Shown: positions 7,248 to 59,852 of the stretch, piece by piece
Layout of the letters: each line of letters begins with the position of its first letter
How positions within the stretch are numbered: the first letter of the stretch is position 1
Origin: a virus
Length of the DNA: 64,000 bases
Virus record (IMG/VR): IMGVR_UViG_3300042556_001828
Coordinates: 9,373-73,372 of that record
Direction: 5' to 3' (one strand)
Program-made: the position numbers and the translations under genes
The notes under the pieces: model-generated
What the model was told of the DNA's origin: nothing
What the model saw: only the letters and a program-made list of their open reading frames with translations
Database searches by the model: none

Positions 7248-8618
7248 TCAACGGTTGACAAGTTCAATAACGTGCTGCTTCATCATATCGCGGAGTTCAC
7301 GCGACCGCTTGGTGCGCGCTTCCTTGATCTGAAACTTGCCAGCTCGTTTAAAATTCACAACAGCGCGGCCAATGGTGTCCAGCTCACCAGCCGGTGTAGC
7401 AGCCGCCAGCTTTGGCGCGCCGCCCATCGCAGCCGGGTCAACCGGAGCCTCACCACCCATGCCGCCCATAGCGTCAGCCTCGCCGCCGGCAGGAGCGCCG
7501 CCGTGAGAAATAGCCTGAATCAGTGCTTCCGGCGGAATACCAAGCTCTTGCAGAGCCATAGCAAGTTCCTGCACGGCGTCGTCTTCCGACGGCGCGCCGC
7601 CCATTTCGCCGCCCATTTCGCCGCCCATTTCGCCGCCCATTTCGCCGCCCATTTCAGGGGCAACGCCGCCAGCAGCTTCTTCAGCCGCAACCGGAGGAGC
7701 GTCACTGGCACCAGAGGCTGCATCGGCCGGAGCCGAGTGATCTTCGCCCTCAGCAGCTTCTTCAGTCGGATCAGCGGCTGCAGCCTTGGAGCTAGCAAAC
7801 CCGATAAACAGGTCAGCCATTTCGTCGGCTTCACGAATCGTGTTAGCGCAAACTTCGCGCACGGAAGCTTCAGCAGCAGCCTTGTCCATGCCGAGCTGCG
7901 CAGCCAGCTCGTAACCAGCGTTAAACGCGGCTTCTTTGCCATCGCGCAGCGACTTAAGATCCGAGCCTTCAATCTTTCCGTCTTTATCGACGTCAAGCTT
8001 CTTTTGGCCGCCCTTTAATTCGCCGGTCGGCGCATTACCGGCTTCCTCTTTTTTTTCTTCGATCTTCTCCTTCAGAAAAGCCGGCATCTCAGCCTGCTTA
8101 TCAAGGTTCGCGGTACCGAAGTTAATGAGGTTGGCCAGAATGTCGTTGCCGAGGTTGCTGCAATGCGCACGGGCTTCCTTGAAGTTTACCGAGCTATACT
8201 TCTCGCCATCATTGGTCTTGGCGGGATGCGTGGTGCCCGGGTCATCCTTGGTGCCCTTGTAATCGCGCTCAGCGGCGGGATCTTCGCCGGTCGCAGCAAC
8301 ATTCGTGTTGATGTTGAGCTGCACGTCGTCTTGACGACCTTCTTGCGACATCTCTGGTGTGTTGTCAACGGCAAGAGCGCCTTGCTGCTTCTTGATGTCA
8401 GCTTCGTACTCGCTCGCGCGGGCGCCGGTGTTGGCGGTTTGCACGTCGTTGTCGACGCTGGTGCTGGGGTGAGTCGAGGCGCCCTGATAGCCACCCGGAT
8501 CGGACGGCGTGGGGCCAGCGACCTTCTCGGCGGCAGACTTCACAGAGCTTTGCGAAATCTCTTCAGCCAGAGCGTTAAGTTGAGCGAACAGTGAACGTTG
8601 CATCCGTGCCATGGTCAT
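7248..8618 (-). CDS. Scaffold-like acidic low-complexity head protein
   Basis: 456 aa, acidic and Ala/Gly-rich; between protease and MCP; many K-x-A sites; DVDKDGKIEGSDL EF-hand-like segment. Confidence 0.65.
   Translation of the reverse strand: MTMARMQRSLFAQLNALAEEISQSSVKSAAEKVAGPTPSDPGGYQGASTHPSTSVDNDVQTANTGARASEYEADIKKQQGALAVDNTPEMSQEGRQDDVQLNINTNVAATGEDPAAERDYKGTKDDPGTTHPAKTNDGEKYSSVNFKEARAHCSNLGNDILANLINFGTANLDKQAEMPAFLKEKIEEKKEEAGNAPTGELKGGQKKLDVDKDGKIEGSDLKSLRDGKEAAFNAGYELAAQLGMDKAAAEASVREVCANTIREADEMADLFIGFASSKAAAADPTEEAAEGEDHSAPADAASGASDAPPVAAEEAAGGVAPEMGGEMGGEMGGEMGGEMGGAPSEDDAVQELAMALQELGIPPEALIQAISHGGAPAGGEADAMGGMGGEAPVDPAAMGGAPKLAAATPAGELDTIGRAVVNFKRAGKFQIKEARTKRSRELRDMMKQHVIELVNR
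7600..7656 (-). repeat. 12-bp coding tandem repeat (GGEM) x about 5
   Basis: cccatttcgccg repeated; encodes EMGGEMGGEMGGEMGGEMGG in the scaffold-like protein. Confidence 0.9.
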
Positions 8619-16776: not shown

Positions 16777-18651
16777 TCAGGGCTTCCACCCACTTGTCGT
16801 TCCGGTCACGCCAAAGTTTTCGCCTTGTGCCAGCGCCGGAACATAACTGCTACCGGCGGTATTGCTCGTTAAACCGCGGTGTACGCTGTTCAGCAGGCCT
16901 TTTTCTTGGTACGACCCGAGCATGCGGGTCATCCAGTCAGGATCGTTGGAGATGTTCGACATGCCGCGTACCATTTCGGGCTGAAACGGCGGCGGCTCTC
17001 TGTGCGCTTGAATATTTGTAATGCCGTGCTGGCCCAAGGTTTTAACAACGTTTTTTGTGATTGGCGTGCCGACGGAATAATGCAGCGCGGGCTGTTCCAG
17101 ATAGTGCCCAGAAAGCGTACTCGGCGCGCCGGCTACGCTCCCGTCGCGCGGCGTCCAGTTTCGCTCCAACATCGAATACGGCACGATATCGTCAGGGGAG
17201 TAGTCGCCGTGCTCGTCCGTCATGCGCACGTGGTTAATCAAGCCGCGCGAAAGCAACTCAATGTTTCTGCGGTGGGCTGTAATACCGCTATTTTGCATCA
17301 CCTGCCGCATCGCTTGGACAAAATAGCGGCGGCCTTCACCCACGCCTTTATGGCGGACAATTTCAGCTGGGTTCGGCATACCCTCCGAAATTGTGTCACC
17401 AGCTTCGATCTCGTCACCCTTTTTAACCGTAACGCCGCGGTCCGTTGGGACATAATGGTCTTGACCGTTAATTTGCACATAAAAGCCGCCCTGTGGCGCA
17501 GGACGCACTTCTTGGACATGCCCATCTGCCTGAGCGTGTGTTGCCCCGCCGGGAAACTTCTTCGGCACCTGTACAAGCGCGTTGAGCGCTTTAAAACCAG
17601 AAATCCCGCCTGCGCCACCGACGCCGCCAGAGTGCTTGGAGCTAATCTGACTTTGTGTGACAGGCTCTGAAAGCGCCTGCGCGGCTGCAATACCCACATA
17701 GTCTCCGACAGGCGGCAGATGGCCTTTTTCGCGATAGCCGACGTCATTTGCATAGACACCGCCGTCTTCTGGGCCGCCGACAATTGGGCTGCGCACTAAG
17801 ATATCTTTAACGCCCATCTCTTTGATGTCGCGCATGATTTTGGGCGTCAGCACAGTATTGCGCTTGTACGGCCCTACGGGTCGCGACAGCATTGCGCCCT
17901 CGTTGTCGGGGTCGTCTATGTCCGTGGGAAAACCGCGCTCGTGGGCGTTGGCTAGGCGCTCTTGGTCTTGCTCGTCTTGGTCCGTGACAAGCAGTCTGTG
18001 CGCCATCTGCGTAAGCTGCTTGCCGTAGAACCCGGCGTCAGCTGTGGCGGTCTTCAGGTCAATTACACCCTTGCGGGTGCCGAACGCGCCGGCAAAGTAC
18101 TCCACGGGCGTTAAGCCTTGGGCGTATCCGCGCATAACAGGAATTGGAATAGGCTCGCCGCGGTGGTCGAGATACTGCATGTCGGCGCCAAGGATCGAGT
18201 TCAGCTGGAACTTGTTGCCCACGCCGGATCCAGCAATCTGGTGCGCTAACGGATTATCGTGCCCGTGGGCCTCGTTATACACATCATCCACAAGCTGCCG
18301 CTGCGCTTCCGACGCCAGCTTGAGTATTTTCGCATTGCGCTGCTCGTCGTTGAGGCCCCTATCCGCCAGAATCTGCCGCAACTGCTGTTTTACTTTCAGC
18401 TGCGTGTGCTGCGCCGCCAAACTCGGCCGCACGTCTTTCAGGCCGAACGATAAGCCGTTTGTTGTGTACGCGGAATCAAGCGCCACGTCATGAAGCTTTT
18501 TCATGACTTCGCGGTATTTTTCCGGGTATTTCTTGGCTAATTCTGTCGCCAGCGCGCCCGTGTTTTTCTTGTTCAAAACGCGCGTATAGTCCCGCATGTC
18601 TTCCGGCAGCGCGTCATTAACCAGCAACTGACCTAGCGTTGTTTTCAACAT
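16777..18651 (-). CDS. rpoC: Phage RNA polymerase beta' subunit, C-terminal part
   Basis: Bridge helix GTRKGVIDLKTATADAGFYGKQL; trigger loop VGIAAAQALSEPVTQSQISSKHSGG; HRRNIELL; N-terminal KTTLGQLL. Confidence 0.9.
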   Translation of the reverse strand: MLKTTLGQLLVNDALPEDMRDYTRVLNKKNTGALATELAKKYPEKYREVMKKLHDVALDSAYTTNGLSFGLKDVRPSLAAQHTQLKVKQQLRQILADRGLNDEQRNAKILKLASEAQRQLVDDVYNEAHGHDNPLAHQIAGSGVGNKFQLNSILGADMQYLDHRGEPIPIPVMRGYAQGLTPVEYFAGAFGTRKGVIDLKTATADAGFYGKQLTQMAHRLLVTDQDEQDQERLANAHERGFPTDIDDPDNEGAMLSRPVGPYKRNTVLTPKIMRDIKEMGVKDILVRSPIVGGPEDGGVYANDVGYREKGHLPPVGDYVGIAAAQALSEPVTQSQISSKHSGGVGGAGGISGFKALNALVQVPKKFPGGATHAQADGHVQEVRPAPQGGFYVQINGQDHYVPTDRGVTVKKGDEIEAGDTISEGMPNPAEIVRHKGVGEGRRYFVQAMRQVMQNSGITAHRRNIELLSRGLINHVRMTDEHGDYSPDDIVPYSMLERNWTPRDGSVAGAPSTLSGHYLEQPALHYSVGTPITKNVVKTLGQHGITNIQAHREPPPFQPEMVRGMSNISNDPDWMTRMLGSYQEKGLLNSVHRGLTSNTAGSSYVPALAQGENFGVTGTTSGWKP

Positions 18652-19539: not shown

Positions 19540-22500
19540 CTACGTATTATCTTCCACAATATGCACTTGGGTGTCTACGCCTATTTCACCACGCTTGTAC
19601 GCCGCCATAGCGTCGCGCTTGGTGCGATATACGTGGGGTTTAGATTTGTGATTTGTTCGGCTAGACGCCACATACAACCCAGTTTGATAGTCTTTGTTCG
19701 GCACGTAATGCGCTTTAAACGAAGCCGCCGAGAACAGATTTTTGCTGGGCAGCATCTTGTGAATAGCTTCTTTGGCAGCGTCGTCAGTGCTGGGCACGTG
19801 ATACTGCATGGCGTCTCCGTCAAAGTCGGCGCCAAAACCCTTGGTAATCACAGGGTTTACTTCCATGACCTTGTTCTTGGTCAGGCGCGGATAAAACGCC
19901 ATCAGGCCGTAACGGTGCAACACGGGCGCGCGATTAATCACAATCGGCCGGCTGTTCATCTGGGTGTGCAGCTCTTCAAACGCAGCTTTGTTTTTGCCCT
20001 CAACAGCGTCTAGCGCCTGCATTCTGGGCATTCCTCGTCGCACCAACCCGCGCACCACGAACGGCTTGTAAATATCCCATGCCTTCTCTTCGGGCAGTGC
20101 CACCTGATCCATGTCCAGATCCGGGTTGGGCGTAATCACCGCCCGACCCACCAAGTCCACGGTGGAACTCAGCAGCTTGCGCTGAACCGTGCCGTACTTG
20201 GGCGAACTACCGAAAATCTTAGACAAGAAACCCTTAACGTTCCGCTCAACGTTTTTGGGCTGCTGCGGGTCGCCCAAACCGCTGACGGCTTTCACGGCGT
20301 CATACAGGCCCAGCCGCTCGTCGCCATAGCTATCAAAGGCGCCGGATGTTTCGCGCAACACGTGGTTGGCGTCGAGTAACTCTTTGTAAAGATAGTTCGC
20401 GTCGTCTACCAGCGGGAGTTTCTTAGAACCCATCGTCGTTACGGGCCTGAACAACGGCGGCAAGACAGCCACCTTACTCATCATCCAGTCTTTCGGGTGG
20501 ACGCCGGTAGCTTCTGCGCTCTTCAGGAAACCCAGCTTGCGGACAGCGGCGTCACGAATGGTCTTGCGACCTGATTTGATATCTTGGCGGGTCTGCTCAA
20601 TCGCTTTGGGAAGATTAATCTTGGCCAGCGCTGCTTGAATTGCCTCTGGGCCGGTCTTGTCGAACAGTGTGGCTTGGCCGGCAAGGACGCCACGGAATTG
20701 CTTCTCGGTAATACCCAACACACGGCGAATGGGGTCTTCCATGACGGGGTTAGGCATCGGCTCGTGTAATGTTATCTTTGACCACCGATTCCCGCCGTGG
20801 CCGCCCGTCATTGTTTCGTCAAACAGCCCGCCGGCTTTGGGCTTCATCAAGCCTTTCCAGTCGACCGTCTCGCTGTTCTTGATTTCACGATCACCGGCCA
20901 GCGAGTCCACATCCTTGTCCGTCATCGCCATAATGTGGGTCTTCGTGCCCTCGCGCACAGTGTTGATACCCGCGGCTTTAAGCTGATTGACGAACTTGTT
21001 GTACACGTGCGGCACCTTGGGCAGCGGTGGCGAATAGCCCGCCATGAACTGCGACCAGTATTCGGGGTTGGCTTGGCCGCGCACCATCTTGGCGTCGCGA
21101 ATGACTTGGCCGGCGCCGTGAGATAAGAGCGCACCCAGATCCAACATGCCGATGCGCTTGGCGCCTTCGCTACCGCCCTTGGCCGGCGTGCCTTCAGCGG
21201 TATAGCCACCGGTCGAGCGGCCTTGGCCCTTGGACTCAGCGGTGTGGTGCAGCTTCATGAAGAACCGATTGCCGGTCAGCACACCCGGAATATTCCGGCC
21301 CGTCTCAGGGTCCGTGACGTGCTCAGTGTCTGACAAACCGTGCTTCTCAAGTTCTTTCTGCGCAAAATCAATCAGGTCTTTGCTGTTATCAAAGTCGGGG
21401 ATCTTGTACGGCTGACCAGTTTTGGCCGCCACTTTGCCCAAGGCCGCCTCGACAACTTGAGCTGGATTCACGCGGCTAATCAAACCCAGCGGACTGACCA
21501 GCGCCTCGTAAGGATTCCCGTCTTTGTCGTGCGGCATCTGGTGGTCTGGGACGACTTCAGCAATCACGCCCTTGTCACCAAACCGGCCTGTGAGCTTGTC
21601 GCCCACTTCCATTTGAGACTTGTTCTTCACAACAACGCTGACGCCCTTGTCCGTGTGCTCGACGTCAGTCACGATGCCGGGCGAATGGTGGTCCCACGTT
21701 ACTGTCTCGTTGGCAAAGTTACCGCCGCGGCCACGATGGACTTTGCCATAGACAGCGTCGCGCTTCTTGGCCACGAGCACTAACGGATCGCCGTAGTTAA
21801 CTTCCATGCCCTTCTTGATGGCGCCCTTGTCGTCGAAGTTATCCAGCAGCTTTTTGTCATACTCGCCCGGGAACAGACTCACGAACGCCTTTTTGCCGAC
21901 GTGCGTGTTAGCGTCCCACTCGGCTTCGTGCTGATACATGTGCTCGCTGGTCAAGCGCTTGGCGGCAGACTGTGAGATCACAATAGCGTCTTCGTAGTTC
22001 TTGCCTCTAAACGGCAGATACGCCGTACGCAAGTTCATGCCCAGCGCCGCGGTGCCCTGCTTGTCTGTAAAGTTAGAGTGCGCCAGCAGCTGCCCCGGCT
22101 TGATAAAGTCTCCGGCCTGCACAGCGGGCGTCTGCGTCCAGAACGTTTTCCGGTTGAACGGCATGTCGTTATACAGATCTGTCACTTGCTTATTGCCGTC
22201 TTTGTCGCGCCACACAATACTGTCGGGCGTCACGGACTCGACACGGCCGGCCGACTGCGCCCTGACAGCGCCCAGCTTTTCTCCCATGACATCTTCATAA
22301 GAACTGCTTGGATTATGCGCCTGCCCAGACTGCACAAGCGGCGCCTCGGCATTCACGAGGGGCAGCGCCTGCGTAAACATGCGCGAACCCATGATCACAC
22401 GATGGCCCTTGATCATGGTCTTCATCGGCACCATGTTCGACAGGGCCGAGAACGTGTTATCCATGTTGGGCAGGCTGTATTGGGCCTGATCGCGCGGCAC

Positions 22501-24984
22501 GTACTTAATCTTGCCGCCGACTAGTGCCGACACCATCGGCAGGTCATGCTTGTCCTCGCCGGGAAACACCAGCGGAATGTCAGCCAGCTCCTGCGGGGTT
22601 TTATACGTGGTCTGGCCTGTCTTGGTGTCGACCACGGGCGTATAAATCTTGCCGTCTTGGCCCTTCATTGCGCCGCCGGCAAAGCGCATGTCAACACCGA
22701 CCTTGCCGCTGTTACCGCACCAAAAACCGCAATTGCCGTGCCGCCGAACGTACAACAAACCGCCCGGTACCGTGGCGCAGTACACCATGCCGGAATACTG
22801 CTGTGTGAAATAGTGACAACGCCCGTCTCGTGCCGCCCGCGGTAAAACCTGATGGCTATTTTGTTTATGCACATGCACAATCCAGCAGCCACCTGTCGAT
22901 GAGTGCGGCCGACTGTCTTTTTCAAACACAGTGCGCGACGAATACCCGAGCCCAAACGCTAACCGCTCAAAATCGCGAGCAAGTTGCTGACTTGATGTGC
23001 AAAAACATGTGCGCTCGCCCTGTTTGTTTTTGCGGCCCTCGCTTTTCATCAGCGCGTCAAACAACCGAAAACGGGCATTACTGGGCGCGCGAAAAAAAAC
23101 GTCGGGAATCCAGCGCTTGGGGCTGCCGTTAAATTGCTTGAAATACGCAGCAACTTGTTTTGTGGCAATAGTAAACGCTTTGCCGTGATAACCCCACTTA
23201 AACGGCAATTTGTTTAAAAGCGCCCGAATTTGATCGCAATTTTCTGGGTTGTGTTTCTGGCACTGCGTTATTTTTACGTGATATTGCGCCGTATCCGGCC
23301 GATATACGCAATTGCCTTCACCTAAATACCAACCTAGTAATTCAGCCCAATCGGCAATATCGACTGCGTCAACTACGGCCCGATTATTGCTGGTGTACTC
23401 TGGTTGCGGCACAGCAAATGTAGTTACTGCGTCGCCTTCGTACGCATCAAAGCCGCCGGATAGAACGCCACGAAACTTTAAATGCATATGCGGCGCAAGC
23501 TCTATTCGATACGCGGCGCCGGCGTACAACGGTCGCGTATACATGCGATGATTTGGCGTAACCAGATAATTTATTTTACCTGTGTTGCCGCCGTACATTA
23601 TTCCGGCGTAATGCGCGGCGTGTAGTTTTTCTGCGACGTGGAATGACAACACACCGGCGGCGTTTAAGCAAGCAAACTCGTCAGCGTCTGTTACATCTGG
23701 CCATTTTTTCCACCCGCTACGCGTCATCACTTCAGTTTCAGCGTCATAACACTCCGGCGTGCGCAAGTAGTCAATAAAGCCCAGATGGCTTGGCTGGACG
23801 CTACGCGACTCAGCCGGTACCGAATCCAAGCTACCAATGCCGCCTTCGCCCAGTCGTGTCACGCGCGTTTGGTGATCAAAAATCTCAGCCGGGTTAATTT
23901 CTTCCAGACTTGAACCCAGCCCAGACCCGATCAGCGCGGCACTGATAGCTTTGTTAAATACGCCGCTGGGAATATGGTCTAGTGACTTCTTGGCCGTGGC
24001 TTTCCAGAGGAGCTGCCGCAGGTTCTTCTTGTCTTTCGTGAAGCGCTCGGCCAGCAGATCTTCAGGACCATGTACTGATTGAAAAGCCATGCTATCACGG
24101 TCGTCTGATTCGGCTTCTTTGCGATTGACCGCGATGAGCTTCTTGGTGATCGCCAGAATCGTGTCGGGCGTCATGTGCTTGTGCGACGTGCCAAGTGTGC
24201 GTCGGGTAACGTCTTCGTCTAGTTCGGTCTTGGCGAACTCCTCGTTAATAGCTTTGGCTTTTTCTTCAGCTGTGGCGCCCGCGATTGGTTTATTCACAAG
24301 CCGTTGATACAGCTTATCCAGCGTGCCCGCGTCGCCCTTCTCCATGTTGACAGCCGTGATCTCGTTGCCCCACGCCTGCCGCATGGCTTGCTCGGGCACG
24401 CCCATGTGGCGCAACAGGGGCATAAGCGGAATCTGCGCTTGGCCAATCTGGATCTTGAACACACCTGTTTGCGGGTCGAGATAATACCTATGTGAACGAC
24501 CTTTACCGGGAAGCGTATTGACGTGCGCTTCCAGCTCGCCGTTCTCTTTCTCGCGGGTAAACACGCCCGGGCGTAGGCGCATCTGGTGGGCCAACGTGTA
24601 CTCAACGCCCTTGTTCACAAACGTGCCGGAGTCTGTAAGATACGGCACATTGGCAATCGTGGCCCGGCGCTGCGCAACAGGCTGATTGGTTTTGTTATCA
24701 ATGAGCGTCCACGTGCCCTGCATCTTGCGCGCTAGCGAGCCGCGCGTCAGCACAGCTTTCTTCTGGTCAGCCTTCGCATACATCTCAGGGCCGGCGTAGC
24801 CCACATCTTGCAGGTGCAACGTGTACAGATCATTCTTGATCGGCTCGATACCCTGCGCGCTGGACAATGCCCGCTCAAAGATATTTTTACGCATCCCAGC
24901 CACGTCGCCGAATGCACGCGGCTGTAAGGGTTGCGGCGGCTGCGTAAGGGCAGGCAGGGGTGGTGCGGAAAAAGGCTCGGCCAT
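19540..24984 (-). CDS. rpoB: Phage RNA polymerase beta + beta'(N-terminal) fusion, intein-containing
   Basis: Beta motifs: RVTRLGEGG, NYEDAIVIS, GDKLTGRFGDKGV, MKLHH, KRIGMLD. Then beta' motifs: KPKAGGLFD, VDLVGRAVI, NRAPVLHR and catalytic GADFDGD at 19813-19833. Confidence 0.92.
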   Translation of the reverse strand: MAEPFSAPPLPALTQPPQPLQPRAFGDVAGMRKNIFERALSSAQGIEPIKNDLYTLHLQDVGYAGPEMYAKADQKKAVLTRGSLARKMQGTWTLIDNKTNQPVAQRRATIANVPYLTDSGTFVNKGVEYTLAHQMRLRPGVFTREKENGELEAHVNTLPGKGRSHRYYLDPQTGVFKIQIGQAQIPLMPLLRHMGVPEQAMRQAWGNEITAVNMEKGDAGTLDKLYQRLVNKPIAGATAEEKAKAINEEFAKTELDEDVTRRTLGTSHKHMTPDTILAITKKLIAVNRKEAESDDRDSMAFQSVHGPEDLLAERFTKDKKNLRQLLWKATAKKSLDHIPSGVFNKAISAALIGSGLGSSLEEINPAEIFDHQTRVTRLGEGGIGSLDSVPAESRSVQPSHLGFIDYLRTPECYDAETEVMTRSGWKKWPDVTDADEFACLNAAGVLSFHVAEKLHAAHYAGIMYGGNTGKINYLVTPNHRMYTRPLYAGAAYRIELAPHMHLKFRGVLSGGFDAYEGDAVTTFAVPQPEYTSNNRAVVDAVDIADWAELLGWYLGEGNCVYRPDTAQYHVKITQCQKHNPENCDQIRALLNKLPFKWGYHGKAFTIATKQVAAYFKQFNGSPKRWIPDVFFRAPSNARFRLFDALMKSEGRKNKQGERTCFCTSSQQLARDFERLAFGLGYSSRTVFEKDSRPHSSTGGCWIVHVHKQNSHQVLPRAARDGRCHYFTQQYSGMVYCATVPGGLLYVRRHGNCGFWCGNSGKVGVDMRFAGGAMKGQDGKIYTPVVDTKTGQTTYKTPQELADIPLVFPGEDKHDLPMVSALVGGKIKYVPRDQAQYSLPNMDNTFSALSNMVPMKTMIKGHRVIMGSRMFTQALPLVNAEAPLVQSGQAHNPSSSYEDVMGEKLGAVRAQSAGRVESVTPDSIVWRDKDGNKQVTDLYNDMPFNRKTFWTQTPAVQAGDFIKPGQLLAHSNFTDKQGTAALGMNLRTAYLPFRGKNYEDAIVISQSAAKRLTSEHMYQHEAEWDANTHVGKKAFVSLFPGEYDKKLLDNFDDKGAIKKGMEVNYGDPLVLVAKKRDAVYGKVHRGRGGNFANETVTWDHHSPGIVTDVEHTDKGVSVVVKNKSQMEVGDKLTGRFGDKGVIAEVVPDHQMPHDKDGNPYEALVSPLGLISRVNPAQVVEAALGKVAAKTGQPYKIPDFDNSKDLIDFAQKELEKHGLSDTEHVTDPETGRNIPGVLTGNRFFMKLHHTAESKGQGRSTGGYTAEGTPAKGGSEGAKRIGMLDLGALLSHGAGQVIRDAKMVRGQANPEYWSQFMAGYSPPLPKVPHVYNKFVNQLKAAGINTVREGTKTHIMAMTDKDVDSLAGDREIKNSETVDWKGLMKPKAGGLFDETMTGGHGGNRWSKITLHEPMPNPVMEDPIRRVLGITEKQFRGVLAGQATLFDKTGPEAIQAALAKINLPKAIEQTRQDIKSGRKTIRDAAVRKLGFLKSAEATGVHPKDWMMSKVAVLPPLFRPVTTMGSKKLPLVDDANYLYKELLDANHVLRETSGAFDSYGDERLGLYDAVKAVSGLGDPQQPKNVERNVKGFLSKIFGSSPKYGTVQRKLLSSTVDLVGRAVITPNPDLDMDQVALPEEKAWDIYKPFVVRGLVRRGMPRMQALDAVEGKNKAAFEELHTQMNSRPIVINRAPVLHRYGLMAFYPRLTKNKVMEVNPVITKGFGADFDGDAMQYHVPSTDDAAKEAIHKMLPSKNLFSAASFKAHYVPNKDYQTGLYVASSRTNHKSKPHVYRTKRDAMAAYKRGEIGVDTQVHIVEDNT
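22711..23751 (-). mobile_element. Intein (347 aa) with LAGLIDADG homing endonuclease in RNAP beta
   Basis: Starts CYDAETEVMTRSGWK after YLRTPE; block B VTPNHRM; endonuclease motifs LLGWYLGEG and LFDALMKSEG; ends VYCATVPGGLLYVRR...WCGN followed by Ser+1 (SGKVG). Confidence 0.9.
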
Positions 24985-34673: not shown

Positions 34674-34690
34674 GGTTTTCTCCGTGTGTG

Positions 34691-34762
34691 CTGCCTGACT
34701 AGGATTTGAACCTAGAACCTAGCGGTTAACAGCCGCGCGCTCTACCGTTGAGCTATCAGGCA
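34691..34762 (-). tRNA. trnN: tRNA-Asn(GTT)
   Basis: Cloverleaf TGCCTGA...GCGGC-TGTTAA-CCGC...GGTTCAAATCC...TCAGGCA-G; U1:A72 and G73. Confidence 0.95.
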
Positions 34763-36181: not shown

Positions 36182-37216
36182 TCAAAGAATCTTGGCGGCG
36201 ATCAAGCAGCCACGCGCCACAGCATGCAACGGATCATTGGCGTGGCGCACTTCTTTGATAGGCAGCGGAAAATTATTCTCGGCGAGTTTCTTTTCAAACG
36301 TCTCCAGAAAGCCCTTGGCCCGCGTTGTCCCGCCTGCAAATGCTATCAATAACGGCTCTTTGAACTTGGGCAGCGCTTTGTGGCCCAGTAATGCCGCCGC
36401 CAGCTGCTTCGTGGTGTAGTCGATCAGGCGCTCGTAGTAGGCGCCCACCGCGGCTAATACGGGGTTCTCGTTCGCCTCGCCAATAGTGAAGTCCCCCTGC
36501 TCTTTCTCAGCCTGCACGACAGAGTCTTCTTCGCCAGTTGCCACAGCGGCCATTCTGTCGATCCAGTCGCCAGACTTGGTGGTCGAGAACAGCACCGTGG
36601 GCTCGCCGTTGAGCATGACACAGACGTTCACCATGCCAGCGCCCCACGAAAGCCCAATCCCCGTATAGTCGTCGTTGGCCAGCTCAGAGTAGCACAGCGC
36701 CTCGGCTTCGTTGATGGCCCGCGCAGCGTAGCCCTGCTCGGCGAGTACAGCTTTGACGACGTCTTCGTGATAGCCGACGTCAAAGTCTTCGTCGTCTTGG
36801 TCCACGGGCTGCGCTGGGACGCAGAACACCAGCTTTTCGCCCTCTTCGGTGGCTTTGCCAGCCACTTCCTTGAGAATGAACGCCAGTACGCGCTTGGCTT
36901 CTTTCTCTTTCGGGGAGACAACGCCGCGGTACATGGGGCGCTTGGCAGATTCGTTGCGCTCGATGGCTTTATCAATGGCGTCTTGGCCGATGAGAATGAA
37001 ACTCCCGTCAGTGTCTTTGACAAACACCTTGCCCTGCAGGCCCTTCTCAATCATCTTCGTGGCCACAGGCGTCGTGGGCTTGATGACGTAGAACGCGTCC
37101 CGGAAATCTTTGTAGCTGATAAATTCAGCCTTATCGTCGCTGGTGTAGCTGATCGGCTCCAAGCTGTCAGAGGCGAGGACGATAAAAGAAGTTCCGACGT
37201 CTAAACCCTTGGCCAT
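36182..37216 (-). CDS. Actin-like ATPase (MreB/MamK/ParM superfamily)
   Basis: Phosphate-1 GLDVGTS; connect-1 INEAEAL; phosphate-2 LSWGAGMVN; adenosine FAGGT; connect-2 DPLHAVARG. Confidence 0.85.
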   Translation of the reverse strand: MAKGLDVGTSFIVLASDSLEPISYTSDDKAEFISYKDFRDAFYVIKPTTPVATKMIEKGLQGKVFVKDTDGSFILIGQDAIDKAIERNESAKRPMYRGVVSPKEKEAKRVLAFILKEVAGKATEEGEKLVFCVPAQPVDQDDEDFDVGYHEDVVKAVLAEQGYAARAINEAEALCYSELANDDYTGIGLSWGAGMVNVCVMLNGEPTVLFSTTKSGDWIDRMAAVATGEEDSVVQAEKEQGDFTIGEANENPVLAAVGAYYERLIDYTTKQLAAALLGHKALPKFKEPLLIAFAGGTTRAKGFLETFEKKLAENNFPLPIKEVRHANDPLHAVARGCLIAAKIL

Positions 37217-55040: not shown

Positions 55041-55247
55041 GAGTACCCCTTAAAAAGAAAAAGTCCCGTTGCAATTTAACCCGGCGCACACGGGACCACA
55101 TGCACGGGCGAGGGCTGTGTTTCACAATCTCGTGCGCTGGCGACAACCCCTGACCAGCGCGCAATATCCAAACTTCTGCACATCATCAACGCACCGGCTG
55201 AGCCAGACCGCGTTGGGTATGCACTGGCGTTAGACGACCAGATGGTA

Positions 55248-55520
55248 GCCTGCCGTACCTAGCGCATCCTTACCCTGACTGGCCTAACCATGCCTGCCAT
55301 GCCGTGTCCTGCCGCCCGTTCCCAGCCTAGCCGGGCCATGACCACTCCGTGCCTGCCGTGCCTAACCGAACCACGTCATGCCGCGCCCTGCCTCACCACG
55401 ACCATGCCTGCCGTGCCCCACCCTGCCCCGCCGGAGCTGGCCAAGCCTAACCCCGCCGTGCCTGCCACACCATTCCCAGCCCTGCCGAGACTAGCCCTGC
55501 CGAACCAAGCCTGCCGTGTC
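55248..55520 (-). repeat. Non-coding GGY-NN pentamer array; five units delimited by GGCAGGC (candidate guide-RNA array, VIPR-like)
   Basis: The minus strand parses as GGCA GGC TT GGT TC GGC AG GGC TA GTC TC GGC AG GGC TG GGA AT GGT GT GGCA GGC AC GGC GG GGT TA... Plus-strand gcctgcc occurs at 55248, 55292, 55351, 55406, 55460 and 55509, giving units of 44, 59, 55, 54 and 49 nt. Confidence 0.85.
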
Positions 55521-55523
55521 TCA

Positions 55524-55985
55524 TCAGGCTCGCGTAGCTTGCCGGCTCGTGCGGCGAGCTACGCGATCAATCGCAGCGAATACAGGAGTTAACTCCTGCA
55601 GGGTTTGGTACTTTCGGCGGACGCGCTGGAACTCTTCCAGCCCCTGCTCAAGCAATTGCGCCCGCATGTCTTCGTCACTCATCACGTCCTCTAACGTGCG
55701 GTAACCGCCGCCAGCGTAACGATCCGACTTGAGCGAGACATACATCGGCACCGTCACATCGCCGCCTTCGGTGGGCAGCACATTGATATTTAAACGGATA
55801 ACTCGTCGCGCCTGCTCCAGACGAAACTGGTGCGCCGCTTTCGTGTTATTCCATTCAAACTCTCTGTGCAGCGCCGTGTCACGGTTACGGGCAAACTCAA
55901 CGATAGCTTCGGGCAGTAGTTGCCCGTCGTTAGCGTTACGGATTTGCTCCAACTCTGCCCGAATCCGATCTCTGTTCTCTGACAT
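55524..55985 (-). CDS. Partner protein of the RAMP-like gene
   Basis: 153 aa from MSENRD (AAGGA RBS); ELEQI...GQLLPEAIVEFAR...LHREFEWNNTKAAHQFRLEQARRVIR; lies between the RAMP gene and the array. Confidence 0.8.
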   Translation of the reverse strand: MSENRDRIRAELEQIRNANDGQLLPEAIVEFARNRDTALHREFEWNNTKAAHQFRLEQARRVIRLNINVLPTEGGDVTVPMYVSLKSDRYAGGGYRTLEDVMSDEDMRAQLLEQGLEEFQRVRRKYQTLQELTPVFAAIDRVARRTSRQATRA

Positions 55986-55999
55986 CACGTGTCCTTTCT

Positions 56000-56755
56000 T
56001 TAACCGCGAACACACTCAAAGTGGCCCCAACCCATGCCGCATGAGTTGGGAGAATCAGCCCGACCCTCGCCAATGCCGACTTGCATACCCGCGCGGAGCA
56101 TGAGATTGGCAATGTCAGCCGGAGTGAACATATCCGCGTCAAAGCGGATACGCACCTTAGCTTCCCACGTGTCATACATGGCCCGAACCCGGATGTCGGC
56201 GACACCCGTGGCGTTGCGAACCGTGTGCTCGACGTGCCGCGGGACTGCATTCACGAGCTTACCACGTGAATCGCGGGCGTGAAGCCGGATCAGCGGCGTC
56301 CCCTCGACGCTGTCAAACCCGTCGGCTTCCACGAAAACCGCCTTCTTGGCCTTGGTCTTGTGGAACCCGACAACCACACAGGAATCGACCAGCGCGTTGC
56401 GGAGCGCGCCAGCCGGGATACCGCGCCAGCCCTGCTTCGACCGGTGCTGGGCCTCTTCGAAGTTGGCATCGAAGTCCTTGGCTGCGCGCTTCTTGCCCTT
56501 GCTGGCTGTAGAGCCCGCCGCCTGCTTCTCGCGCATTATGTTCCGCGCCTTGGCGCCGAACGCTAGCTGGACATAAGGCGCTGTACCGCGGATCGGGATC
56601 TCCACGGTCTTGAAGTTGGGCGCCGTGATCGTGACACCCAACCGATCGGCCACAGCCGAATCACTCTTATCATCCTTGGGCGTCAGGTGTTCCACAGCAG
56701 CCTTGGGAGCCTTGGGAGCCTTCGTCTTCTTAGCACCTTTCAACAGCGTTGCCAT
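56000..56755 (-). CDS. Stand-alone Cas7/Csm3-like RAMP protein (Vipr-like)
   Basis: 251 aa; beta1 VEIPIRGTAPY; GIPAGALRNAL (cf. IPGSSLKGAL); thumb-like VRNATGVADIRVR; G-rich loop GIGEGR...GMGWGHF at the C-terminus; basic KAP-repeat N-tail. Confidence 0.75.
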   Translation of the reverse strand: MATLLKGAKKTKAPKAPKAAVEHLTPKDDKSDSAVADRLGVTITAPNFKTVEIPIRGTAPYVQLAFGAKARNIMREKQAAGSTASKGKKRAAKDFDANFEEAQHRSKQGWRGIPAGALRNALVDSCVVVGFHKTKAKKAVFVEADGFDSVEGTPLIRLHARDSRGKLVNAVPRHVEHTVRNATGVADIRVRAMYDTWEAKVRIRFDADMFTPADIANLMLRAGMQVGIGEGRADSPNSCGMGWGHFECVRG

Positions 56756-56814: not shown

Positions 56815-56820
56815 CGAAAA

Positions 56821-57162
56821 TGGAGGCGGCCGGATTTGCACCGGCGTCCAGAGTAAATTCCACAAAGACATCTACATCGTTATCGCGTTGTTCTCACACT
56901 CCGCGCAAAGCCAGCCGATTATCGGCGTCAGGTGGGCTACCACCATCTTTGGCTGTCTCTCCAGCCTGCCCGACTTCTTCCAGTCTTCCAGCGTGAGGGG
57001 CGATAGCGTCACGCGCGCTACCCGATCACTGCACTAGGCAGCGAGAGCGGGGACACTGTTGAAAGTGCCAATTAACATGTGATTAGCTTTTTACGTGGCC
57101 AGCTAATCAACCACGGCATGCAGTTCAAACCTTCCTCATCCTGTCGATACCAGTACGCCCCC
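56821..57162 (-). ncRNA. ssrA: tmRNA
   Basis: 5' GGGGGCG / 3' CGCCTCC-A acceptor with G3:U70; TCGAC 5' motif; T-arm GCCGG-TGCAAAT-CCGGC; tag ORF 57034-57069 GTFNSVPALAA-stop. Confidence 0.92.
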
Positions 57163-57582: not shown

Positions 57583-57726
57583 TGCCGGCTGTACCTTTGC
57601 CCGTCATGATTCGGGCAGGCAACGGCCCTGCAGCTAGGCTTCTGCTGTACACCAGCAGAATTTCCCAGCGGCAGTTGAAGAGTTTGTAACTTTATGCCGC
57701 CTTGTTGTGGCCCACTGGAGCAGCAA

Positions 57727-57798
57727 TAGCGCTACGGAGAATCGAACTCCGGTTTCGACCTTGAAAGGGTCGCGTCCTGACCACTAGACGATAGCGCC
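57727..57798 (-). tRNA. trnE: tRNA-Glu(TTC)
   Basis: GGCGCTA...CGACC-CTTTCAA-GGTCG...GTTCGATTC...TAGCGCT-A cloverleaf. Confidence 0.95.
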
Positions 57799-57804
57799 AA
57801 CTTT

Positions 57805-57969
57805 TTACGCCGCGACTCCTTGGTACTCAGCTCGCCGCCAGTGGTAGGCGCTCATACCAACCTGCATCCGACCATTTGTTACGCGCGTGTCGTACTGCGC
57901 GTTGTTGGTTTCAGCCCAGCCAACAATGAAACAAAACCGCTCGTCATCCATCACTTCTCGATAAACCAT
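57805..57969 (-). CDS. Small hypothetical protein (54 aa)
   Basis: Hand-translated MVYREVMDDERFCFIVGWAET...; GGGAG RBS; below the ORF-track cutoff. Confidence 0.55.
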   Translation of the reverse strand: MVYREVMDDERFCFIVGWAETNNAQYDTRVTNGRMQVGMSAYHWRRAEYQGVAA

Positions 57970-58000
57970 ACCTGACTCCCTTCAGTTAAAGTTATCAAAG

Positions 58001-58043
58001 AAAAAAGCGGGCGCCGGTTACTTGGGCTTTCACCGGCGCCCGC
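58001..58043 (-). terminator. Intrinsic terminator
   Basis: gcgggcgccggt...accggcgcccgc hairpin followed by T6 on the minus strand. Confidence 0.8.
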
Positions 58044-58061
58044 CCATAACAGGAGATCTAA

Positions 58062-58424
58062 TCAGCGCGCATACCGCTTGCAGGCGTACCAGCGCCCGTT
58101 GCGGAACGCCACGCCCTGATCGACCACTCGCATGCCGCTACGGCTGTAGCAGCAGGCGTTGAGCGCAGCTTCAGGACCAGAACTGGACATGCCGACGCCT
58201 TCGTAGCCCGAGTTACCACCGAAGTGGCGACACGAACCAGAACGCGCCATCATCTCAGCAACTCCCTGCGCAGTCGAGTTGCTGGGACTGCTGTAGCTAC
58301 GCACCGTCGACATGGGTGCCGGCCCCGTGTACCGCTCCACGTACACAGGTCCGTCAGCGTTCACGTTCACAGCCCACGCAAGCAGGCAACCAAGCACAAA
58401 CGCCGCGGCAAAAACATTACGCAT
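58062..58424 (-). CDS. Secreted CAP/SCP-like small protein
   Basis: Signal peptide; RHFGGNSGYEGVG...CCY...GVA...WYACKRY. Confidence 0.65.
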   Translation of the reverse strand: MRNVFAAAFVLGCLLAWAVNVNADGPVYVERYTGPAPMSTVRSYSSPSNSTAQGVAEMMARSGSCRHFGGNSGYEGVGMSSSGPEAALNACCYSRSGMRVVDQGVAFRNGRWYACKRYAR

Positions 58425-58489
58425 ATCATCCTCCATGATCTGCCGCGGGTACGCGCGGCAGGCTAAGAACAAACCCCGTACCGGGCTAA

Positions 58490-58563
58490 TGGGCACAGAG
58501 GGACTCGAACCCCCAACCCCCTCGGTGTAAACGAGGTGCTCTGACCAATTGAGCTATGCGCCC
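58490..58563 (-). tRNA. trnV: tRNA-Val(TAC)
   Basis: GGGCGCA...CCTCG-TTTACAC-CGAGG...GTTCGAGTC...TGTGCCC-A. Confidence 0.95.
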
Positions 58564-58568
58564 GCCGC

Positions 58569-58919
58569 TCAGGCAATCTCCCGCCTAAGTGTTCGCATCG
58601 AGCGGTACCAGTCCCGCAGGATACGATCGCGGATACCCAGAACACGCCGCCGAATCCACCGTCTGACACGCAGGTAGGGCGTGTTGAGCCCCTGCGCGTC
58701 CATGTACTTCTGCAGGCAGTACATGACCACTTCATCAGATGTGCCATCAAGCGTAACCGTATCGCATCTCATGCACTTATGACACGGCACTTTGCGTACC
58801 GGCACTTGGTGGAGCACGCCATCAATCCTCATGGCCCACACGTCATCCATCGTGCAGGCTTCAATATTGCCGCGGCAGCAATGACACTGCAGCGAATGAT
58901 AAACCAAGCTATCTGCCAC
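58569..58919 (-). CDS. YgiT/MqsA-type Zn-finger protein
   Basis: CHCC...VPVRKVPCHKCMRCD. Confidence 0.6.
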   Translation of the reverse strand: MADSLVYHSLQCHCCRGNIEACTMDDVWAMRIDGVLHQVPVRKVPCHKCMRCDTVTLDGTSDEVVMYCLQKYMDAQGLNTPYLRVRRWIRRRVLGIRDRILRDWYRSMRTLRREIA

Positions 58920-59124
58920 GCATTTGCTCCTTTGTGAAACGGGGAAACCGCGCGTCACAGTCTGGGCATTTATATTCCCAGACGCCATCGTACTTGTCGC
59001 GAAACACTAACCCGATCAACCGGCTAAACCGATATGGCTGGCCGTAGTGCTCGCGATCTTTTTCTGGAATCGGCCCGGCATCCCAGTTTGCGTTGCACTC
59101 CGGGCATTTACCGTGATGATCCAT
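58909..59124 (-). CDS. Small Zn-ribbon protein
   Basis: CPEC...FSRLIG...CPDC; AAGGAG RBS. Confidence 0.7.
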   Translation of the reverse strand: MDHHGKCPECNANWDAGPIPEKDREHYGQPYRFSRLIGLVFRDKYDGVWEYKCPDCDARFPRFTKEQMRGR

Positions 59125-59148
59125 GCGTGCTCCTTTTTTAGATATCAA

Positions 59149-59234
59149 TGGCCGGGGCGGGGGATGATCCCGCACGGGAATTTCTTCCCAGCGGATTTTA
59201 AGTCCGCTGCGTCTGCCAATTTCGCCACCCGGCC
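59149..59234 (-). tRNA. trnL: tRNA-Leu(TAA), non-canonical T-loop
   Basis: GGCCGGG...GCGGA-CTTAAAA-TCCGC; long variable arm; T-arm GCGGG-ATCATCC-CCCGC. Confidence 0.9.
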
Positions 59235-59240
59235 CGCCGG

Positions 59241-59534
59241 TTAGGCTTGTTCTACCCACTCGACCAGCCGTGAAGGCGACCCTGAACACTGGCTGGGCGC
59301 ACGGTTGTAAAACCATTGCACATACAGCTTGATCAGCGGCAGGTTTTCATCGTCGGCGTAGTTGACTGCGCCGCGAAGATCATTGCAGATCACAGCCATC
59401 AGAAACTGGCCCGGGCGTACATGATCGATCACGTACCGCTTGATGGCGTCCTGCATTCGTTCAGGAATGCCGGCGTACTCCCCGGTGAACCATTCTTCTA
59501 CCGGATACTCAAACTGCTGCGTTGCTGTTGACAC
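59241..59534 (-). CDS. Hypothetical phage protein
   Basis: IPERMQDAIKRYV...PGQFLMAVICNDLRGAV...AD..N, a recurrent phage family. Confidence 0.75.
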   Translation of the reverse strand: MSTATQQFEYPVEEWFTGEYAGIPERMQDAIKRYVIDHVRPGQFLMAVICNDLRGAVNYADDENLPLIKLYVQWFYNRAPSQCSGSPSRLVEWVEQA

Positions 59535-59746
59535 GCGATTTGCTCCCTTGGTTGCTGTTGATTGACCCAGATCCACCACTGACCGTTCTCGTATTTCCAC
59601 CATTGCCCGTTGTGGTATACAGGCCGGCTGGCCGGCTGTGCAAGCTGAGTCTGCTGGACCCGCTGCTGCAGCCGCTGAACACCCTGCTGGACGGTCGGCT
59701 GCACGACGGGCCAGACAAACGAAAGCAGAATCATCCACCACGCCAT
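59498..59746 (-). CDS. Small Gln/Trp-rich exported protein
   Basis: AAGGAGG RBS; hydrophobic N-terminus; YHNGQWWKYENGQWWIW. Confidence 0.6.
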   Translation of the reverse strand: MAWWMILLSFVWPVVQPTVQQGVQRLQQRVQQTQLAQPASRPVYHNGQWWKYENGQWWIWVNQQQPREQIACQQQRSSLSIR

Positions 59747-59776
59747 AATTCCCTCCTTGGAGAAAATCACGGCGCT

Positions 59777-59852
59777 TGGTGCGGCCCTTGGGACTTGCAC
59801 CCAAAACCTATCGGTTAAAAGCCGAATGCTCTACTAATTGAGCTAGAGCCGC
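59777..59852 (-). tRNA. trnK: tRNA-Lys(TTT)
   Basis: GCGGCTC...TTCGG-CTTTTAA-CCGAT...T-loop TGCAAGT...GGGCCGC-A-CCA. Confidence 0.93.

Follow-up and report, generated by a model that had tools for sequence, protein, structure and literature searches.

The locus described here occupies the minus strand of a 64,000-nt stretch of viral DNA (the window) and consists of three parts, which according to the ORF list and the sequence all lie on that strand: a gene for a stand-alone RAMP protein (vipr), a gene for a small accessory protein (vap-like), and a non-coding array of short G-rich repeats (Table 1). An initial annotation, made from the sequence alone, had reported a 251-aa ORF with RAMP motifs and a 153-aa partner 14 nt downstream, and both genes lie as it placed them. 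Its description of the array required some adjustment: the non-coding GGY-NN period stood, exceeding that of 300 shuffled sequences, while the array begins 8 nt rather than 3 nt after the stop codon of the partner gene and is 268 nt rather than 270 nt long. At the distal end of the locus, a long-loop hairpin followed by a T-run may end the vipr transcription unit. Since a terminator scan of the locus called 0 sites, we only infer this role from the sequence.

Table 1. Features of the vipr locus, with positions numbered along the window.
Feature	Position	Strand	Description
vipr, 251-aa ORF	56755-56000	(-)	Stand-alone RAMP, Cas7/Csm3-like
vap-like accessory gene, 153-aa ORF	55985-55524	(-)	PHROG 15946; start 14 nt after the vipr stop
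Array leader	55512-55523	(-)	Comprises the 8 nt that follow the vap stop and the initial GGCA half-unit; ACACGGCA is the motif preceding the first GGC
Non-coding array, 268 nt	55515-55248	(-)	Begins 8 nt past the vap stop
Guide unit 1	55463-55511	(-)	49 nt, 9 repeats + terminal GGCA
Guide unit 2	55409-55462	(-)	54 nt, 10 repeats + terminal GGCA
Guide unit 3	55354-55408	(-)	55 nt, 10 repeats (one of 6 nt) + terminal GGCA
Guide unit 4	55295-55353	(-)	59 nt, 11 repeats (one of 6 nt, one of 4 nt) + terminal GGCA
Guide unit 5	55251-55294	(-)	44 nt, 8 repeats + terminal GGCA; last junction GGC at 55250-55248
Possible end of transcription unit	55052-55096	(-)	7-bp stem GTCCCGT / ACGGGAC, 20-nt loop, then T-run; just before the next gene

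The array can be parsed into a leading GGCA, five units of 49, 54, 55, 59 and 44 nt, and a final GGC, which together reproduce its 268 nt exactly. We refer to it as "staggered", since the register slips by -1 at every GGCA|GGC junction, giving the five units. The 44-59-nt sizes put forward in the initial annotation equal the spacings between these junctions. Four of the five units have a length of 5n+4; the exception, unit 3, measures 55 nt because of one 6-nt repeat. Among the 48 five-base repeats, 37 read GGY-NN, 42 have GG as their first two bases and 45 measure exactly 5 nt, leaving 11 that are not GGY and three of another length. The earlier wording "near-invariant GGY" was therefore too strong. 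The NN positions use 15 of the 16 possible dinucleotides, with an entropy of 3.71 of 4 bits.

This periodicity is not due to chance. The period-5 GG score of the array, taken as the average over 50-nt windows, is 1.38, compared with 0.27 +/- 0.09 (maximum 0.64) in 300 context-preserving shuffles and with a median of 0.06 and a 99th percentile of 0.21 for the whole 64 kb. The array also holds the strongest period-5 signal of the window: with both strands considered, each of the ten top-scoring 280-nt windows overlaps it. No orphan arrays were found elsewhere in the 73-kb contig from which the window was taken. A weak period-5 signal near 42.3 kb was rejected as an array and represents a Gly-rich coding region. 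Tandem Repeats Finder recovered only fragments of the array, with periods of 15 and 25, and Rfam found no family in it. The 3' flank of the array folds no better than shuffles (z 0.09).

The 251-aa protein contains the motifs IPAGALRNAL, GIGEGR and GMGWGHF. Its residues 1-45 constitute a Lys-rich, low-confidence N-terminal extension, a thumb hairpin is predicted at approximately residues 173-193, and the G-loop GIGEGR (residues 227-232) is followed by an insert ending in GMGWG. Pfam, NCBIfam and PADLOC gave no match for this protein, and a PDB sequence search returned nothing relevant. It did match PHROG 4652 (E 1.2e-13), and its family is large: 2358 clusters were retained at E <= 0.001 among 3447 candidates, and 1792 representatives at 50% identity, 239 of these at E <= 1e-30. 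The initial annotation had proposed a structural check for a RAMP fold. An AlphaFold2 model built with 30 homologues (pLDDT 80.1, pTM 0.70) was compared with the PDB by Foldseek and yielded 14 matches at E <= 0.001, all of them Csm3/Cas7-type chains of type III, III-D and VII CRISPR effectors (TM 0.32-0.43). As modelled, the protein folds like CRISPR Csm3/Cas7.

The genomic setting differs from that of a CRISPR-Cas system. No Cas10 or other Csm/Cmr subunit and no CRISPR-like repeat-spacer array were found in the 64-kb window, Pfam (E <= 1e-4) detected no cas family among its 68 further ORFs, and PADLOC detected none for the vipr and vap products. The claim that the window is devoid of cas genes and of an ordinary CRISPR array is thus upheld by the Pfam and repeat scans. 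Compared with type III and type VII CRISPR-Cas systems, with their Csm3, Cmr4 or Cas7 proteins, the window is without Cas10, Csm/Cmr partners, Cas6, Cas1/2 and a repeat-spacer array. The period differs as well, being 5 nt with three bases presumably sequestered in the window and 6 nt with one base sequestered along the type III/VII backbone.

A system with this composition is already in print. VIPR (Viral Interference Programmable Repeat) is a CRISPR-related viral system in which short repeat RNAs silence DNA, and four preprints from 2026 describe or recover it (10.64898/2026.04.26.720920, 10.64898/2026.04.26.720927, 10.64898/2026.10.15.759431, 10.64898/2026.10.21.760802). As set out in the preprint text, a VIPR system combines a stand-alone RAMP (Vipr) with vrRNAs that contain 9-16 YNNGG repeats, and in most cases includes a single accessory gene (vap). 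Each repeat is covered by one protomer, with GGY held and NN exposed. The system acts on double-stranded DNA, not on RNA as CRISPR type III/VII does, and skips one base of the target per repeat. Types I-VII are defined there by Vipr phylogeny, vrRNA architecture and vap1-6, and several array layouts are described, including "staggered arrays with overlapping vrRNAs". Staggered arrays are not listed among the layouts that the Results of the VIPR preprint give as confirmed by sRNA-seq. VIPR arrays have also been recovered at metagenome scale.

The window contains what is expected of a VIPR array, namely at least four tandem YNNGG repeats with variable NN in non-coding DNA flanking vipr, and what is expected of a minimal VIPR locus, namely vipr and one vap gene with no cas genes and no CRISPR array. 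At the level of the preprint text and the legend of fig. S18 (10.64898/2026.04.26.720920), it shows no difference from staggered VIPR arrays in any feature compared. Both combine the same stand-alone Vipr RAMP with an adjacent accessory gene and with GGY/NN pentamers in flanking non-coding DNA, both reside in a viral genome without cas genes, and in both, neighbouring guides abut with a one-base offset, such that the end of one is the start of the next. We consider it very probable that the locus is a VIPR system, carried by a large lake-water phage that has not been cultured. Because the VIPR class has been published and its arrays mapped across metagenomes, the finding leaves existing knowledge unchanged, and the locus is a clean further example rather than a new kind of system. 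What it adds is a well-resolved case of a tail-less, staggered VIPR from an uncultured jumbo-like lake phage.

The kinship with VIPR can be followed to individual residues by comparison with the Vipr protein of phage SUSP1, identified in the preprint text as YP_009199429.1 (10.64898/2026.10.15.759431). SUSP1 Vipr also matches PHROG 4652 (E 1.4e-96). The profile of 30 homologues aligned with it over 173 columns (residues 3-189 of 195) at 90.6% probability and E 1.3e-6; a tblastn search with the window Vipr did not reach SUSP1 at E <= 1e-3. Judged by these profile matches, the 251-aa protein is homologous to the Vipr proteins already in print, and the resemblance to VIPR put forward in the initial annotation was borne out. 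The cryo-EM VIPR preprint names H17, R138, D177, W178 and R179 of SUSP1 as the residues that hold the GGY bases. In the profile alignment, R138, D177 and R179 correspond to R191, E230 and R232 of the window protein, which are invariant in all 30 aligned sequences. The two remaining contacts are unmatched, with W178 aligned to G231 and H17 to L64. The nearly invariant W243, located in the insert, could substitute for an unmatched contact.

Compared with the Type II VIPR of Escherichia phage SUSP1 (NC_028808), the window shares the gene order vipr-vap-array and differs as follows. The SUSP1 vrRNAs are ~100 nt long and each carries a conserved 3' pseudoknot tail, whereas the guides of the window are 44-59 nt long, abutting and tail-less. 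The window Vipr is extended by 45 residues at its N-terminus and carries an insert of 8 residues behind the G-loop. Finally, the accessory genes are unrelated, as SUSP1 vap1, the one accessory gene for which tests are reported, belongs to PHROG 5926 and the window gene to PHROG 15946 (BLASTP E 1.9 between the two).

The 153-aa accessory protein matches PHROG 15946 with E 1.9e-20; of 127 candidate relatives, 72 passed E <= 0.001. Pfam, NCBIfam and PADLOC gave no match for it, and a protein atlas search returned unnamed viral clusters only. Its model (pLDDT 81.0) displays an N-terminal domain (residues 1-97) followed by a C-terminal helical hairpin (100-153). Foldseek found no match to this model at E <= 0.001; the weaker rows were mostly winged-helix proteins, and the model weakly suggests that the N-terminal domain is winged-helix-like. 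By tblastn, a homologue was found in 29 phage records, and PHROG 15946 is common to mycobacteriophages such as Quico, Gordonia phage Ecliptus and one cyanophage.

The same search with vipr found a homologue in 33 phage records, comprising 27 from Mycobacterium, five from Gordonia and one cyanophage. To this we added 80 IMG/VR loci, examined out of 477 confirmed. The initial annotation had asked whether homologues are accompanied by similar arrays, and most are: a same-strand period-5 array lies within 1.5 kb of vipr in 75/80 of these loci, as opposed to 1/80 for the opposite strand. A vap homologue stands beside vipr in 68/80 loci, and GGCAGGC junctions likewise occur in 68/80. The three-part layout of vipr, accessory gene and array thus recurs in most related viral loci. 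Array starts similar to the A-rich ...ACACGGCA|GGC start of the window are present in five relatives (L005, L006, L010, L029 and L031). In Mycobacterium phage Quico (NC_028751: 37.3-38.8 kb) the array precedes vipr, in cyanophage Cy-LDV1 (BK059895: 30.3-32.1 kb) it lies between and after both genes, and both have GGCAGGC junctions. The window locus matches the Quico-type array directly by blastn, with 69.8% identity over ~200 nt. Quico and Cy-LDV1 are temperate and cultivable or host-assigned, and carry the vipr / PHROG 15946 pair with staggered arrays. Their loci adjoin the immunity region (cro, antirepressor, excisionase), and all genes of the loci are annotated "hypothetical protein".

These relatives help to evaluate an explanation in which the G-rich repeat has nothing to do with the RAMP gene and is either a DNA-level element, such as a G-quadruplex-prone tract or a packaging or replication signal, or part of a plus-strand coding sequence. 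Two-tier G-quadruplexes are in principle conceivable for a tract with GG every 5 nt, and a 100-aa Pro/Ala-rich ORF (55290-55592, plus strand) spans the array. However, the array accompanies vipr on its own strand in 75 of the 80 loci counted above, as opposed to one on the other strand, no reading frame can be maintained across 5-nt repeats whose register slips, and the preprint text presents direct biochemical evidence for the VIPR family. We regard this explanation as extremely unlikely.

It is also conceivable that the array is a remnant, in decay or no longer active, or that it acts as one long RNA in which the GGCA|GGC slips are not guide boundaries. The 11 repeats of 48 that are not GGY and the internal +1/-1 slips in units 3 and 4 would fit such a state, and the text of the preprint that describes staggered arrays (10.64898/2026.04.26.720920) reports no experimental confirmation of their processing. 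On the other hand, vipr and vap are intact and conserved, and internal degeneracy is described as frequent in vrRNAs in the Methods of the VIPR preprint. A further counterargument lies in the junction spacings, of which we collected 330 from the 80 IMG/VR loci, the window, Quico and Cy-LDV1. Their length is 4 mod 5 in 266 cases, 3 in 39, 0 in 22 and 2 in three, with modes at 49 nt (65 cases) and 54 nt (59 cases). Decay would not preserve this 5n+4 spacing across relatives, and we consider a remnant or a single long RNA quite improbable.

Following the reading of the locus as an active VIPR system, we propose a sequence of events that draws largely on the work on SUSP1. The array would be transcribed, probably at the 3' end of a transcript that also covers vipr and vap, and Vipr protomers would polymerize on the RNA, one per pentamer, holding GGY and exposing NN. 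The initial annotation had arrived at the same arrangement, with one subunit per GGY-NN pentamer and NN presented for gapped pairing with double-stranded DNA, which coincides with the account of SUSP1 in the preprint text and would presumably extend to the window. How the five units become separate guides is our own suggestion. The -1 slip would break the register of the filament, ending one filament and beginning the next, so that each unit could yield a separate short guide and the five units could give rise to five tail-less guides. Each ribonucleoprotein would then bind double-stranded DNA in the pattern NN-x-NN-x..., skipping one base per repeat, and block transcription there, as in the SUSP1 work. 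The most likely targets would be genes carried by competing phages, by satellites or by prophages of the same host, and the accessory protein would probably assist at the DNA.

A more far-reaching version of this scheme, which we offer as a tentative idea that may well prove wrong, is that staggered arrays punctuate themselves. The -1 slip at GGCA|GGC would stop one Vipr filament and start the next, so that the RNA itself would encode the 5n+4 length. Guides would then mature without the help of a 3' tail, a ruler protein or a nuclease dedicated to processing, and the PHROG 15946 protein might act at the DNA or cap the filaments. If true, self-punctuation would produce mature guides more simply than any route known from CRISPR or from the tailed SUSP1 vrRNAs. 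Since PHROG 15946 occurs in cultivable phages (such as Quico and Ecliptus), there is a direct route to test both staggered-array processing and the function of the accessory protein.

Guide targets were scored as published, using the gapped NN pattern on both strands and a null of shuffled guides. Against the 73-kb contig, the five guides reached at best 14/18, 15/20, 14/20, 14/20 and 12/16 read positions with a one-base skip, equal to shuffled guides, and shuffled-guide controls reached up to 17 of 20. When 0-3 skips were tried, perfect matches in the contig arose under the three-base-skip model only and were the array itself. Searches of the IMG/VR, metagenome and genome collections covered perfect matches to the one-base-skip pattern. 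The exact patterns of units 2, 3 and 4 had 0 matches each in IMG/VR. Unit 5 had 48 matches there, spread over contigs with a GC content of 22-51% and without a predominant gene family, which we read as chance for an AT-rich 16-base pattern. Unit 2 had one match in metagenome contigs and two in genome contigs (a Pirellulales MAG and an Aminicenantes MAG), all rejected as unrelated genes in about the number expected by chance. Unit 1 had two matches in IMG/VR, also rejected, in unrelated genes of contigs with 46% and 38% GC; none of the other guides scored above controls on either contig. One of the two unit 1 matches, at positions 1001-1026 of a 45.9-kb IMG/VR contig (L085), covers all 18 read positions with the skipped bases at codon wobble positions. 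The gene in which it lies encodes a 353-aa MoxR/CobS-like ATPase and belongs to a complete phage of 46% GC; about one such match is expected by chance.

Overall, exact-pattern matches across the collections were at chance level and none converged on one element. The guides of the window did not beat shuffles against 82 related VIPR loci. Conversely, 199 guides from relatives scored at best 15/16 and 18/20 on the 73-kb contig, and these two were rejected as low-complexity matches, one of them in a Gly/Ala-rich gene. The competing-phage or host-gene targets suggested in the initial annotation consequently found no credible candidate in the contig, the related loci, or the IMG/VR, metagenome and genome scans, the last three of which considered perfect matches only. 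As the large collections were searched for perfect matches only, this blank result is no evidence against targeting. A silencing role of the window locus is one that we infer, because the searches made found no natural target.

The target results also bear on the possibility that the VIPR locus regulates the phage's own genes or those of its host, for instance in timing or host takeover, rather than acting on rival mobile elements. This would be in keeping with the absence of a rival-element target in IMG/VR, one metagenome scan and one genome scan, and self-targets are possible in the remainder of the genome, of which the record represents ~36%. Against it, no guide beats shuffles in the 73 kb at hand (best 15 of 20, controls up to 17), and the Methods of the VIPR preprint state that there were no self-targeting matches at >= 80% NN match in the clades studied. 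We therefore judge a regulatory role of this kind unlikely and favor rival mobile elements as the probable targets.

The carrier is a large, uncultured, jumbo-like lake phage. Its source record, a virus contig of IMG/VR, comprises 73,372 bases with an estimated completeness of 36% and a GC content of 56%, and the locus is present in DNA runs labelled lake-water metagenome. Among the runs listed as containing the locus, none is recorded as RNA. The contigs of four lake-water runs are near-identical across the locus. Their sole difference within the array is an A>G change on the plus strand at 55344 in one contig of run X10, which falls on an NN position of guide unit 4; as a single event, it proves nothing. 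The window also encodes PhoH, a thymidine kinase, an SNF2 helicase and a tail-tip domain. A 1814-aa ORF (19540-24984, minus strand) contains RNA polymerase Rpb2 domain 6 and Rpb1 domains 1-2, and the neighbouring 624-aa ORF (16777-18651, minus strand) contains Rpb1 domain 5. Together, these two ORFs constitute a fused multisubunit RNA polymerase, as in jumbo phages.

Directly upstream of vipr lies a phage tmRNA gene (56818-57162, minus strand; RF00023 in Rfam, 87.3 bits, E 2e-33), for which ARAGORN gave the tag peptide GTFNSVPALAA. It is followed by a hairpin with a T-run, located ~20 nt ahead of the vipr ribosome-binding site, so that expression of vipr may require read-through or a phage-specific promoter. 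A promoter scan found no σ70-like promoter between this tmRNA terminator and vipr. Just upstream of the tmRNA gene, a tRNA cluster (Glu-TTC, Val-TAC, Leu-TAA and Lys-TTT) occupies 57726-59852 on the minus strand. With a separate tRNA-Asn (34690-34762, minus strand), the window totals five tRNAs and the tmRNA.

Two further features of the window lie apart from the VIPR locus. A perfect 12-nt tandem repeat of ~5 copies (7655 being its last position and 7595 its first, plus strand) is contained within a 456-aa ORF (7248-8618). The 344-aa ORF at 36182-37216 (minus strand) has a full-length Pfam match to PF25216 (Volactin; E 5.9e-61), and a phage-encoded cytoskeletal protein of actin-like type may merit a separate look.
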